A stretch of 51,091 bases of DNA from Candidatus Moranbacteria bacterium RIFCSPHIGHO2_01_FULL_55_24 (GTDB lineage: Bacteria > Patescibacteriota > Minisyncoccia > Moranbacterales > UBA1568), in the NCBI GenBank assembly GCA_001786575.1, contig MFRW01000010.1:1-51091 (forward strand), in the 5' to 3' direction. This document shows positions 5,019-48,590 of the stretch, one piece after another. The notes under the pieces are model-generated. The model saw only the letters and a program-made list of their open reading frames with translations. It did no database searches and was not told where the DNA came from. The first letter of the stretch is position 1, and each line of letters starts with the position of its first letter. Both the position numbers and the translations under genes were made by a program.

Positions 5019-5438
5019 ATGATGTACGCAGAACGCCTCGGTTTGGACCATGATTTCGCTTTTTCCGTCCACGGCGAAGCGGAACTCGACGTTCCGAGCC
5101 GCATGGTGATCTTCTTGTTCGTGCAGAACTACGAACTGACGAATGAGGAGTTCGGGTATTGTTTTGATTTTCCCGGCGCCGGATTGTGTCAGCCGAACTT
5201 CTTCACGATGGCGGACGTGCTCCGTCTCTTCTGGCAGCGGCGCGAGAAGCTCCCCATCAAAGACAGAAAAATGAATTTCCTGGCGTGCAGCGAGGATGAG
5301 AAAGTCTTCCTTGAGAGCTTCCTCCGCTGGGCATCGGAAATCCAGGAATGGGTGTTCGCTGGCTGCAGGGGACGCAAGAGCGTAGATTTCTTCAAAGCAG
5401 GCACTCCGTTTCTGGCCTGCTATGCGCTTCCCTCTTAG
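5019..5438 (+). CDS. hypothetical protein (orphan, 139 aa)
   Basis: Own promoter, SD GGAGGG 6 nt upstream of the ATG, and a terminator at 5457-5497. No family recognised. Confidence 0.7.
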   Translation: MMYAERLGLDHDFAFSVHGEAELDVPSRMVIFLFVQNYELTNEEFGYCFDFPGAGLCQPNFFTMADVLRLFWQRREKLPIKDRKMNFLACSEDEKVFLESFLRWASEIQEWVFAGCRGRKSVDFFKAGTPFLACYALPS

Positions 5439-5456
5439 CAGCTAATACGCTGCGAA

Positions 5457-5497
5457 CAAAAAGGCTCGGTGCGGATCGCATCGAGCCTTTTTCTTTT
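5457..5497. terminator. bidirectional intrinsic terminator
   Basis: AAGGCTCG ... CGAGCCTT stem flanked by A and T runs. It closes both the orphan ORF and the minus-strand tRNA operon. Confidence 0.75.
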
Positions 5498-5519
5498 TAT
5501 AAAAAATAAAAACACCCAA

Positions 5520-5552
5520 TAGGGTGACTAGATCGAACTCTCATTCAGGGTC
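5520..5552 (-). pseudogene. degenerate tRNA-His 3'-half copy
   Basis: Minus strand reads GACCCTGAATGAGAGTTCGAT..CTAGTCACCC. The true tRNA-His reads TACCATGAATGAGGGTTCGATTCCCTCTAGTCACC. The T arm is broken. Confidence 0.6.
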
Positions 5553-5573
5553 TTCTTAAGAAATGCTCAAAGG

Positions 5574-5645
5574 GGTGACTAGAGGGAATCGAACCCTCAT
5601 TCATGGTACCACAAACCATTGTCCTGCCATTGAACGATAGTCACC
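5574..5645 (-). tRNA. tRNA-His (anticodon GTG) with encoded G-1
   Basis: G-1 plus acceptor GTGACTA/TAGTCAC, anticodon arm ATGGT-TTGTGGT-ACCAT, T arm GAGGG-TTCGATT-CCCTC, discriminator C. Confidence 0.9.
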
Positions 5646-5660
5646 CCTCTATTCACTTCT

Positions 5661-5712
5661 TAATGATCACAATCCGCCAGCTGGCGGACCTACCATGAAA
5701 CGATAGTCACCA
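5661..5712 (-). pseudogene. degenerate tRNA-His 5'-half copy carrying a 16-nt palindrome
   Basis: Minus strand reads GGTGACTATCGTTTCATGGTAGG + TCCGCCAGCTGGCGGA + TTGTGATCAT. It matches tRNA-His positions -1 to about 23 and the anticodon loop. There is no T arm or 3' acceptor strand. Confidence 0.7.
5673..5688. repeat. 16-nt perfect palindrome TCCGCCAGCTGGCGGA
   Basis: Copy 1 of 3 of a near-identical GC palindrome. All three copies lie inside pseudo-tRNA 5' halves. Confidence 0.9.
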
Positions 5713-5730
5713 CACCGGGTGCTTTTCAAG

Positions 5731-5803
5731 TGCTCCGGGTTGGAATCGAACCAACGACCAATAGCTTAGAAGGCTACTGCTCTATCCACTGAGCTACCGG
5801 AGC
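5731..5803 (-). tRNA. tRNA-Arg (anticodon TCT)
   Basis: Acceptor GCTCCGG/CCGGAGC, anticodon arm GTAGC-CTTCTAA-GCTAT, T arm GTTGG-TTCGATT-CCAAC. Confidence 0.9.
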
Positions 5804-5849
5804 ATGCGGTAATCCCGGAACCTTTTTCGTGCGAATATTTCTAAACCGG

Positions 5850-5922
5850 TGGGTGTAGTAGGGCTCGAACCTACGACCGTTAGCTTAAGAGGCTACTGCT
5901 CTACCAACTGAGCTATACACCC
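5850..5922 (-). tRNA. tRNA-Lys (anticodon CTT)
   Basis: Acceptor GGGTGTA/TACACCC, D arm GCTC/GAGC, anticodon loop CTCTTAA, T arm GTAGG-TTCGAGC-CCTAC. Confidence 0.9.
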
Positions 5923-5934
5923 GAATACTTTTTA

Positions 5935-6007
5935 GCCGCATCCTTGTCTACGACCGTTTGCTTGAGAGTCCGCCAGCCGGCGGATCTACCAACCGAAGCT
6001 TACACCC
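5935..6007 (-). pseudogene. degenerate tRNA-Lys copy carrying the 16-nt palindrome
   Basis: Minus strand reads GGGTGTAAGCTTCGGTTGGTAGA + TCCGCCGGCTGGCGGA + CTCTCAAGCAAACGGTCGTAGACAAGG. It is colinear with tRNA-Lys. The palindrome replaces the anticodon-stem 5' strand. The T arm and acceptor 3' strand are lost. Confidence 0.7.
5969..5984. repeat. 16-nt palindrome TCCGCCAGCCGGCGGA
   Basis: Copy 2 of 3. Confidence 0.9.
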
Positions 6008-6046
6008 AAATAAAAAACGCTTCTAAAACGGATAAAGCGTACCGCG

Positions 6047-6075
6047 ATAGTACCAAGAAAATGCCAGCAAGTCAA
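6047..6075 (-). promoter_or_regulatory. sigma70-type promoter TTGACT-N17-TACTAT for the tRNA operon
   Basis: Read on the minus strand upstream of pseudo-Lys, tRNA-Lys, tRNA-Arg and tRNA-His. It is followed by the hairpin ACGCTT..AAGCGT plus a T run at about 6012-6040. Confidence 0.6.
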
Positions 6076-6084
6076 GATTTCGGG

Positions 6085-6738
6085 AAAATTAAAGGGCCCC
6101 GTGGTCAGTTGATACTGATACATACGGGGCCCTGTCTGCGTGAATGGTTCGATCGATCCGAGGTGATGAGCGAAATATCGCTCCCGAGGCCTGGATATTG
6201 ATCTGGAACCCTCTGAACGAGGAGGTCGCATCCTGTGCGACAGGCGAGCGATAATTCTCGCTATGCTTCCAGCGGGTGGGGATAGATATCCCTTGCCCTA
6301 GCTATCGGAACGGAGGATGCGTGGCGACGCGGTCATGCATGAGGATCGCTCCTTCTGCATTCAGTTAGCCCGGGCACCATTGCGTCGGGCTGGTGGCTCG
6401 GCACGGTCCGCTTCCTGCTTGAGGTGCGGGCCGTGCCAGCGCCGACGGGCGAATATCAGGCGGTCGAAATAACGGCAGCGCCGGCGTCGGCAGGGTCGGT
6501 GTCGGTGCACATCTCCATGGGCGGACTGGTCTGGGTAGACATCGTAGCCTCCTTTGCTGTGAGCCATTCAAAGAAAAAACGGTTTCCTTCGCCGGGAGCA
6601 GTATGGAGCGTGTCTCTTGCGAGAAGACGCTCCCTTTATGGGTATAAAGGACTGCTGCGGTAGCGGGGACCGGAATGGCGAGAGGAAGACGATAGAGTCA
6701 CCTGCCTTTCGCCATCCCGGTTCTTTATTTTTAAACAA
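6085..6738 (-). ncRNA. unclassified ~650-nt promoter-to-terminator transcript (structured non-coding region, possibly with a small ORF)
   Basis: Perfect TTGACA-N17-TATAAT promoter at 6745-6773. A terminator GGGCCCCGT..ACGGGGCCC plus TTTAATTTT lies at 6085-6132. Between them are many perfect hairpins and no convincing long ORF. Confidence 0.45.
6456..6542 (-). CDS. candidate 28-aa small ORF (MSTQTSPPMEMCTDTDPADAGAAVISTA)
   Basis: AAAGGAGG lies 5 nt upstream of the ATG. C/G-rich third codon positions resemble neighbouring genes. Too short to be judged from sequence alone. Confidence 0.25.
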   Translation of the reverse strand: MSTQTSPPMEMCTDTDPADAGAAVISTA

Positions 6739-24763: not shown

Positions 24764-24812
24764 GGAGGAATGGTCCGCCAGCCGGCGGATTGAAGGCAGC
24801 AGTCTTGAAAAC
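24764..24812 (+). pseudogene. degenerate tRNA-Ser(TGA) 5'-half copy carrying the 16-nt palindrome
   Basis: GGAGGAATGG + TCCGCCAGCCGGCGGA + TTGAAGGCAGCAGTCTTGAAAAC. The flanks are identical to the true tRNA 76 nt downstream. The palindrome replaces the D-loop CCGAGTGG. The copy stops after the anticodon loop. Confidence 0.75.
24774..24789. repeat. 16-nt palindrome TCCGCCAGCCGGCGGA
   Basis: Copy 3 of 3. Confidence 0.9.
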
Positions 24813-24839: not shown

Positions 24840-24926
<87 letters not shown>

Positions 24927-24939
24927 CAAAATGAAACGA

Positions 24940-28373: not shown

Positions 28374-28520
28374 TGGCGGAGAGGGAGGGATTGAACGCGG
28401 ATCCGCCATTAGGCGAATCCTTCTGAGAACCCACGGTTCTCAGCGGCCTAAAGGCCTGCTCTCCTCCAACGGAAAACTCCCGTTTTCCGACCCTTTCCCC
28501 GTTCGAATCCATCCTACAGC
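28374..28520 (-). ncRNA. tRNA-Ser(GCT)-derived hairpin-rich RNA ending in CCA (not a foldable tRNA)
   Basis: The minus strand carries four consecutive perfect hairpins: CGGAAAAC-GGGA-GTTTTCCG, GGCC-TTTA-GGCC, CTGAGAACC-GTG-GGTTCTCAG, GGATTCGCC-TAAT-GGCGGATCC. These are followed by TTCAATCCCTCCCTCTCCGCCA, identical in its last 17 nt (TCCCTCCCTCTCCGCCA) to the tRNA-Ser(GCT) 3' end. A terminator follows at about 28340-28372. Confidence 0.5.
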
Positions 28521-42071: not shown

Positions 42072-44159
<2,088 letters not shown>

Positions 44160-48565: not shown

Positions 48566-48590
48566 GTCCGCCTCTTGGCGGACTGTTTTC
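48566..48590 (+). terminator. intrinsic terminator after rplA
   Basis: GTCCGCC-TCTT-GGCGGAC followed by TGTTTT. The stem sequence is the same as in the pseudo-tRNA palindromes. Confidence 0.75.

Follow-up and report, generated by a model that had tools for sequence, protein, structure and literature searches.

Among the small GIY-YIG nucleases described so far, the Ssn proteins are single-domain enzymes of about 94 amino acids which act as site-specific nucleases on single-stranded DNA (ssDNA) (Chenal et al., Nat Commun 2025, PMC11893778). Binding and strand-specific cleavage of ssDNA take place beside a palindromic hairpin repeat, termed NTS/SRM, and neither double-stranded DNA nor RNA is attacked; the repeat flanks the ssn gene and is scattered genome-wide, and the arrangement NTS-ssnA-NTS was likened to an insertion sequence by the authors (PMC11893778). 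From bacteria of the Candidate Phyla Radiation (CPR), sparse GIY-YIG genes are known in non-intron insertions of rRNA genes, which are not obviously homing (PMC11270868). Here we describe a related arrangement at a transfer RNA (tRNA) operon of Candidatus Moranbacteria bacterium RIFCSPHIGHO2_01_FULL_55_24, located in a stretch of 51,091 nucleotides (nt) of contig MFRW01000010.1, referred to as the window. In front of the intact tRNA-Lys gene stands a partial copy of the same gene, a pseudo-tRNA-Lys, which carries a short palindrome (PAL). This copy is quite probably what is left of a selfish GIY-YIG cassette that has lost its open reading frame (ORF), is transcribed passively as part of the leader and is removed by RNase P.

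The Lys-Arg-His tRNA operon is read from the minus strand, and its first gene is an intact tRNA-Lys(CTT) at 5922-5848, called by ARAGORN and scored with 71.3 bits by the Rfam tRNA model. The broken copy precedes it on the same strand. Its 5' segment GGGTGTAAGCTTCGGTTGGTAGA (6007-5985), which comprises the acceptor 5' strand, the D arm and the D loop, agrees with positions 1-23 of the real gene in 21 of 24 aligned columns. It is followed by PAL itself, TCCGCCGGCTGGCGGA (5984-5969), a 16-nt palindrome with a GC-rich stem of 6 bp and a loop of 4 nt that stands for tRNA positions 24-31, and by the segment CTCTCAAGCAAACGGTCGTAG (5968-5948), in which 19 of 21 bases equal real positions 32-52 and which runs from the anticodon loop over the 3' strand of the anticodon stem and the variable region into the first part of the T stem. 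Its anticodon is CTC where the real gene has CTT, and among 113 sites this anticodon-loop state (CTCTCAAGC) is found in one other genome alone, G025. A spacer of 25 nt, ACAAGGATGCGGCTAAAAAGTATTC (5947-5923), leads from the relic to the real gene. When the 260 nt upstream were aligned locally with the genome's own tRNA-Lys, the score was 42, as against 10-18 in 26 relatives with clean leaders.

An earlier note on this DNA had described a pseudo-tRNA-Lys colinear with the real gene, with the palindrome in the same place as at the His locus and the anticodon mutated to CTC. The string quoted there is present exactly on the minus strand and the description is right except for the distance to the real gene, given as 12 nt; the distance is 18 nt when counted from where the quoted string ends and 25 nt when counted from the last base with homology. 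The promoter TTGACT-N17-TACTAT was likewise recovered by a consensus scan (6075-6047, minus strand), with the -35 element TTGACT at 6075-6070, the -10 element TACTAT at 6052-6047, an extended -10 TG and 9 of 12 consensus positions matched. Because the pseudo-copy lies downstream of this only recognisable operon promoter, and ahead of the intact tRNA-Lys, it is presumably co-transcribed with the operon. What the earlier note overlooked is where the pseudo-copy comes from: it is most likely the ORF-less form of a cassette made up of a GIY-YIG gene and a hairpin.

This reading is based on intact elements at the same gene in other bacteria. A scan of one genome per prokaryote species, in which PAL had to be succeeded by the anticodon-loop context of tRNA-Lys, TCCGCCRGCYGGCGGACTYTNAAGC, yielded 87 loci where PAL occupies the same place in tRNA-Lys; they come from at least 12 CPR classes, the host groups including Saccharibacteria, Shapiro-, Moran-, Doudna-, Falkow-, Gottesman-, Kerfeld-, Azam-, Buchanan-, Campbell-, Nomura- and Paceibacteria. 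Layouts were classified over 112 sites. The order PAL, GIY-YIG ORF, tRNA-Lys was found at 32 of them and PAL followed by tRNA-Lys with no ORF at 27, where the distance from the start of PAL to the tRNA is 40-159 nt (62 nt in the relic). At 24 sites the tRNA-Lys comes first and is followed by a PAL-bearing pseudo-copy, and at six the order is tRNA-Lys, ORF and PAL-bearing 3' pseudo-copy. PAL stands on both sides of the ORF in L007, L184, L186, L189, L217 and L218.

The intact elements run from tRNA positions 1-23 through PAL to tRNA positions 32 to about 43-58, then to the ATG of a GIY-YIG ORF of about 85 codons and its stop, which in most of them lies inside the real tRNA; in the Shapirobacteria- and Saccharibacteria-type elements it is a TAG at tRNA positions 8-10. 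The exact junctions were read in L138, L146, L178, L207, L141 and L202, and the junctions of the relic are those of the intact elements. Of these loci L146 belongs to the Shapirobacteria record JAQVIV010000005 and L202 to the Candidatus Moranbacteria record LBXA01000019. Where intact ORFs start, the relic has an ATG (5941-5939) preceded by AAGG, and one frame of the spacer reads ..AKKYSGV* into the TAG at tRNA positions 8-10. The spacer is thus a candidate fusion of the ribosome-binding site and ATG of a lost ORF with its last codons. Junctions, ATG and spacer frame together fit an internal deletion of the ORF, a step that we infer, since the 25 nt are not demonstrably homologous to anything.

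The genome is a metagenome-assembled draft of 789 kb in 11 contigs with 45 tRNA genes. PAL was searched in it with the pattern TCCGCCRGCYGGCGGA, the reversed pattern serving as control. In the window there are seven strand hits (three sites on both strands and one site with two mismatches), as against 0.18 expected from shuffles, and the whole genome has five exact sites and none for the control. All five lie inside a partial 5' copy of a tRNA gene, 17-51 nt upstream of that same gene. The genes marked in this way are those for Lys(CTT), His and Ser(TGA) in the window and for Ala(GGC) and Asn on contig C4. The place of PAL within the copy depends on the tRNA type: in Lys and His it occupies positions 24-31, in Ser 11-18, in Ala about 15-25 and in Asn about 5-11. 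The sister relic of the same operon, a 5' copy of tRNA-His at 5646..5711 on the minus strand with PAL at 5673-5688, precedes the tRNA-His gene (5572-5644), a 3' fragment of which is found at 5522-5565. The sister relic at tRNA-Ser(TGA) is a 5' copy at 24764..24812 on the plus strand, with PAL (24774-24789) in the D loop, and stands before the gene at 24840-24927. In a census of all 45 tRNA genes about eleven were adjoined by partial self-copies, and of the 13 exact TCCGCC-N3-5-GGCGGA hairpins in the genome 10 have a tRNA gene no more than 200 nt away.

Other sequences of this kind were seen in the same genome. The window has an exact TCCGCCTCTTGGCGGA hairpin and a PAL-like site with two mismatches, TCCGCCGGCTGACAGA, at 48567-48582 and 43864-43879, respectively, neither of which adjoins a tRNA gene; a genome search for degenerate PALs at two mismatches was too noisy for use. 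Upstream of tRNA-Lys(TTT), at C1:99590-99630, the T-run of the leader passes directly into a short, decayed copy of the gene's 5' part (GGGTGCGTAGCTCAAGGG..) that no longer has a hairpin. The genes for tRNA-Gly(GCC) (C4:7601) and tRNA-Gly(TCC) (C5:65839) have 5' pseudo-copies without PAL. On the minus strand of the window at 28374-28520, beyond tRNA-Ser(GCT) and its terminator, there is a 3' pseudo-tRNA-Ser made up of several perfect hairpins, TTCGCCTAATGGCGGA among them, with the T loop and the 3' strand of the acceptor stem at its end; it resembles the layout of a tRNA followed by a hairpin-patched pseudo-copy, from the same element family. A conserved, GC-rich module of about 100 nt, GAACGGGAAGGGGTCGGGAAACGGGAGTTTCCCGTTTGGGGTGACC...GGGGCTAGAGGGCGGAAGCCCTATAGAACGCAG, was noticed ahead of 3' pseudo-fragments of the preceding tRNA. 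It occurs on contig C4 at about 66790-66900 (L002 about 1670-1780) and 3' of tRNA-Thr(GGT) (C11:12524) and tRNA-Glu(CTC) (C11:11853), in a shorter form at window positions 28440-28510 and also in G011 (L072), and has no Rfam match.

Small GIY-YIG ORFs are also found at tRNA genes other than tRNA-Lys. In this genome one intact small GIY-YIG cassette is present, at C3:46005-46330 (L035 1447-1790, minus strand) in tRNA-Ala(TGC), where it heads an Ala-Ile-Met-Met-Asp tRNA cluster. It consists of a promoter, a copy of tRNA positions 1-17, the hairpins TCCGCCAGAGGCGGA and CCAGCCTTCGGCTGG, a D-arm remnant and an ORF of 85 codons, the last five of which lie together with the stop within the tRNA (its first 15 nt). 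Small GIY-YIG ORFs were found in 45 of 60 genomes of relatives, with no more than ten in each. Twenty of 31 ORFs examined lie directly upstream of a tRNA gene on the same strand (17 within 15 nt of its start and three at 64-150 nt), and mostly a copy of the first 12-17 nt of the tRNA, split by GC-rich hairpins, stands about 50-70 nt before the ATG. A cassette of the PAL type was also found at tRNA-Asn (L007), with an ORF of 82 amino acids between PAL-bearing tRNA fragments and a Pfam GIY-YIG match (E=8.7e-19) that takes up residues 1-69 of the 82.

The intact ORFs of relatives encode 82-86 amino acids and a single domain. In comparisons with Pfam, NCBIfam and PDB the cassette ORFs consist of the catalytic domain, and no DNA-binding domain beyond it was found. 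Enzymes of the Seg and I-TevI type are larger and possess a DNA-binding part. The closest PDB matches are the UPF0213 proteins BH0048 (3e-6) and EF2693, followed by SLX1 and I-TevI; NCBIfam gave weak sub-threshold matches only.

In a tree of 90 ORFs the type of the abutting tRNA changes 15 times, compared to a mean of 27.5 and a minimum of 24 in 500 label shuffles, and within one order there are 8 changes, compared to a mean of 14.1 and a minimum of 11. The ORFs group by their adjoining tRNA, without regard to the host. The Lys-associated ORFs of many CPR classes, Moranbacteria included, form one clade with the Asn/PAL ORF of L007 (100% support), and the Asn/PAL ORF of G034 is nearest to this Lys/PAL clade. 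The type of hairpin tracks the ORF clade as well, a double hairpin in either orientation going with Ser and Ala and CCTGCCTGCCGGCAGGCAGG with Leu. As the Lys set was chosen through PAL, independent evidence comes only from the Asn cases and from where the Moranbacteria ORFs fall in the tree. Over 61 genomes (34/3/12/12) PAL and small GIY-YIG ORFs co-occur with an odds ratio of 11.3 (p=4.6e-4), a calculation that ignores phylogeny.

No ORF of the PAL clade remains in the present genome. Its second GIY-YIG gene (C6:21069-21306, minus strand) is frame-shifted, stands directly after smpB and belongs to another clade, the members of which also follow smpB in relatives and have no link to tRNA genes. 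In addition, small GIY-YIG genes away from tRNAs, with inverted repeats of about 20 nt around them, were seen in L086, L087, L089, L090, L092 and L098. The arrangement resembles an insertion into the loop of a long hairpin, the repeats being for example cccagtagtgaaattttgaa ... ttcaaaattctactactggg.

The comparison of orthologous operons indicates which of the two tRNA-Lys copies is the older. Thirty genomes of the same, very broad, genus share the Lys-Arg-His operon; statements on their kinship rest on the identity of valyl-tRNA synthetase (ValRS) only. In 26 of these operons the leader measures 20-111 nt, mostly about 30-50 nt, and has no tRNA-like segment. A pseudo-tRNA-Lys is carried by the present genome, G025, G003, G004 and, on a second contig, probably G002. 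That of G025 has PAL in the same position and the same CTC change, G003 has a decayed PAL and a double hairpin in the D loop, and G004 the double hairpin only. The relatives nearest by ValRS, G019 (65% identity), G020 (60%) and G012 (58%), are all without the pseudo-copy, whereas the carriers reach 43-50%, so that the distribution of the relic is patchy. In the 26 relatives without a pseudo-copy tRNA-Lys starts 0-15 nt past the U-run of the leader. Here it is the pseudo-copy that directly follows the U-run, from which we conclude that the broken copy occupies the ancestral position, the functional tRNA being located 3' of the former cassette.

The earlier note had taken the pseudo-copy as a designed leader and had named lack of conservation in relatives as the finding that would speak against this. 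By that measure the pseudo-copy is not a conserved leader, because only 4-5 of 30 orthologous Lys operons carry one and the closest relatives by ValRS do not. A separate observation concerns the ValRS genes used for this comparison. In G003, G004, G008, G014, G026 and G029 they match in two blocks (residues about 1-455 and 460-877) with about 600 nt between them, in one open frame of 950-1200 amino acids, which suggests that some genomes, and not others, have an insertion of about 200 amino acids at one site, either an intein or an additional domain.

The promoter-proximal hairpin and T-run, which the earlier note had regarded as a possible attenuator, do exist. The hairpin with its T-run spans 6040-6008 on the minus strand, begins at the expected start of transcription and, as folded from the single sequence, resembles a terminator; its arms are ACGCTT(T) at 6040-6034 and (G)AAGCGT at 6023-6017 (-6.0 kcal/mol), and the T-run TTTTTATTT takes up 6016-6008 on the 3' side, abutted by the 5' segment of the pseudo-copy. 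In 29 of 30 related Lys operons TTGAC(N17-19)TAnnnT is found at the same relative place, one of these 29 being a mis-call. All 22 tabulated related leaders fold into a small hairpin of 4-9 bp, with stem sequences that differ from genome to genome (examples of the arms are ACGCTTT/AAAGCGT, GCGTTTT/AAAACGC, CATTGCTT/AAGCAAT and AAGCTT/GAGCTT), and in most of them the hairpin starts about 6 nt past the -10 element and reaches up to a U-run, U5-6(G/A)U3-4, or stops a few nt away from it. Most of these 22 genomes have no pseudo-copy. We therefore regard hairpin and U-run, which recur across the 22 related leaders, as an ancestral part of the leader that is separate from the pseudo-tRNA and unrelated to it. 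With -1.7 to -8.4 kcal/mol the stems are weak, and their statistical support is positional only. Shuffle z-scores of seven leaders lie between -3.0 and +0.6, and the leader of this genome has -0.73. A simple terminator scan made no call at the leader hairpin. RNAalifold found no structure in a MAFFT alignment of 23 leaders, because the hairpin arms were misaligned, and per-sequence folds were used instead. The hairpin may serve in attenuation, as a protective 5' stem-loop or as part of a U-rich leader for RNase P.

Judged by the published description, the Ssn family is the closest published system. In both cases a GIY-YIG-only protein of about 85-95 amino acids is encoded by a gene that is flanked, sometimes on both sides, by GC-rich palindromic hairpins; the hairpin spreads alone, hairpin and nuclease co-occur per genome, and the hairpin varies with the lineage of the nuclease. 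Unlike Ssn, the cassette sits inside a tRNA gene, a segment of the tRNA is duplicated, the ORF stops within the tRNA, and in the displaced copy a defined stretch has given way to the hairpin. The hairpin is present in 0-19 copies per genome instead of hundreds, the hosts are CPR bacteria and the nearest structures are UPF0213 proteins. At the relic locus, moreover, the nuclease gene is gone. The Ssn paper mentions tRNA not once (PMC11893778).

A further system of comparison is SegB of the phages T4 and T6, a free-standing GIY-YIG homing endonuclease whose gene also lies in a tRNA cluster (PMC2330249, PMC13096335). SegB and the cassette share a selfish inheritance, a polymorphism of presence and absence and a nuclease lineage tied to its target region. 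As expected of a homing-type element, the relic is patchy (4-5 of the 30 Lys operons of the genus) and the ORFs cluster by tRNA type across CPR classes. In contrast, segB is phage-borne, stands between tRNA genes and has neither hairpin nor duplicated tRNA segment. A homing cassette that restores an intact tRNA in its carriers would face the problem of self-cleavage. The insertions in CPR rRNA genes resemble the cassette in host group, in the presence of small GIY-YIG genes within stable-RNA genes and in the lack of intron features, but no tRNA insertions, duplicated segments or cognate palindromes have been reported for them (PMC11270868). REP/REPIN-RAYT systems and the IS200/IS605 elements have scattered short palindromic hairpins tied to one small hairpin-flanked nuclease gene as well. 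Their enzyme, however, is a Y1 HUH transposase, and REPs are extragenic and numerous, whereas PAL is rare and in relatives also stands in frame in genes. As no Y1 transposase (PF01797) was found in this genome, by a search that was positive in 6 of 14 reference genomes used as control, mobilisation of the REP/RAYT kind is ruled out. Full-text literature searches returned no description of GIY-YIG cassettes within tRNA genes.

PAL is not confined to tRNA genes in all genomes. In relatives with many copies PALs are mostly found outside tRNA contexts, and some stand in frame in protein genes: L104 (G005), L006 (G048), L013 (G056) and L110/L122. Leucyl-tRNA synthetase (LeuRS) thus reads ..IPLIHCD-PPAGG-CGVV.., and a CCA-adding enzyme (..DN-PPAGG-PKDWD..) has PAL at the same position in two families, identical in 16 of 16 nt between different flanks. 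At 61 solo sites we found no consistent target-site duplication; flanking repeats of at least 8 nt are in modest excess (11% vs 2%), and A/C is favoured before and T/G after PAL. PAL can therefore spread or persist without the ORF.

These solo copies belong to the points that weigh against the derivation of the relic from a cassette, as PALs in non-tRNA DNA and in protein genes mean that PAL may have come to tRNA-Lys apart from any ORF. In the same direction point the locus itself, which offers a 25-nt spacer and no recognisable ORF sequence, so that a former ORF is suggested by comparison without residue-level homology, and the genus, in which no genome examined has an intact ORF at the Lys site. 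All five PAL stems of the genome are perfect, and the pseudo-tRNA segments beside them differ from the real genes by about 8% (hand count), which hints at constraint or at a recent origin; the PALs came from an exact-pattern search, which biases this comparison. Finally, activity, target and mobility of the nucleases are putative in every member of the family.

Some of these points would be explained by two events, a tandem partial duplication of tRNA-Lys and a later insertion of PAL, with never a nuclease gene at this place. Solo PALs are common in relatives, both intergenic and in frame (LeuRS, the CCA-adding enzyme and others), 5' pseudo-copies without PAL exist in this very genome at Gly(TCC), Gly(GCC) and Lys(TTT), and the spacer holds no demonstrable ORF remnant. 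Nevertheless we consider such a history unlikely: PAL is at exactly positions 24-31 in 87 CPR tRNA-Lys loci, with an ORF between PAL and tRNA-Lys in 32 sites, and independent insertions would have had to hit the same 8 nt each time. Moreover, an ATG (5941-5939) stands where intact elements begin their ORF, and all five PALs of the genome lie in 5' copies of tRNAs and none elsewhere. The constancy of the stems could also mean that the PAL-bearing leader was co-opted, either as operator for a dimeric DNA-binding protein or as an element of RNA processing or stability, which would amount to the designed leader of the earlier note. The five PALs indeed all lie between promoter and tRNA gene, their stems are perfect despite decayed flanks and a perfect 16-bp palindrome has the typical shape of an operator. 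Yet the relic is absent from 25-26 of the 30 related Lys operons, those of the nearest relatives included, and in other genomes PAL stands inside coding genes or 3' of tRNAs. Folding of the whole leader is not unusual (z=-1.23), and a permissive Rfam scan of 5300-6400 returned the three real tRNAs and sub-threshold noise but nothing else, hence no match for the leader. Co-option is thus quite improbable.

Since integration classically takes place at tRNA genes, and islands formed in this way have partial tRNA duplicates at their borders, one might also think of a scar left by an integrase-mediated island or prophage with its attachment site in tRNA-Lys. It is the 5' part that is duplicated here and not the 3' end, the copies lie 25 nt apart with no cargo between them, and the sole tyrosine recombinase match (PF00589) of the genome is on another contig, C5. 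The neighbours of the locus, VanW-like, SIMPL and HSP20 genes, are ordinary genes. We give this origin next to no credit, and the same applies to the idea that the resemblance is accidental or was produced by the assembly. The draft state of a metagenome-assembled genome in 11 contigs invites such caution, but the alignment score is far above that of the 26 control genomes, and independent assemblies from many studies show this structure as well. A diversity-generating retroelement was dropped as an explanation because the differences between the copies are not adenine-specific, and a split or permuted tRNA gene because the intact tRNA stands alongside.

Returning to the ORF-less cassette relic as the favoured reading, the events might have been as follows. 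The cassette would be mobile and specific for its tRNA. A single crossover, or a repair templated in the tRNA homology, would yield both main layouts, that is a broken 5' copy, the ORF and a whole tRNA, or a whole tRNA, the ORF and a broken 3' copy. If the Ssn nucleases are taken as a model, the DNA hairpin cognate to this nuclease clade is most likely PAL, which would at the same time mark and inactivate the displaced tRNA copy. At the present locus the nuclease ORF would then have been lost through a deletion that left the hairpin-patched 5' copy and the 25-nt spacer. Today the relic would be part of a leader of about 119 nt starting from the operon promoter, and the RNase P cut at the 5' end of tRNA-Lys would free this leader, in which the relic presumably has no function of its own. 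We are more tentative about a wider proposal, namely that PAL is the cognate ssDNA hairpin and that hairpin, gene and tRNA duplicate together form an undescribed, hairpin-guided mobile element of naturally competent CPR bacteria, for which the universally conserved tRNA sequence would be both a portable homology arm and a safe harbour; this is possible, and in our opinion rather doubtful. If it were true, orphan PALs would stay cleavable and could, given a matching nuclease, shape recombination or transformation around tRNA operons.

For the CPR bacteria the relic accounts for a recurring oddity, the partial self-copies of tRNAs. It links these to a widespread family of minimal GIY-YIG nucleases, of which one branch (Ssn, in 2025) has been characterised, never with tRNA genes. 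For annotation it means that pseudo-tRNA leaders of this kind should not be taken as regulatory inventions. The cassettes are predicted to be natural pairs of nuclease and hairpin of differing specificity. And if the cassette is mobile as we suppose, a selfish gene can occupy an essential single-copy gene and the host survives, the gene being rebuilt alongside.

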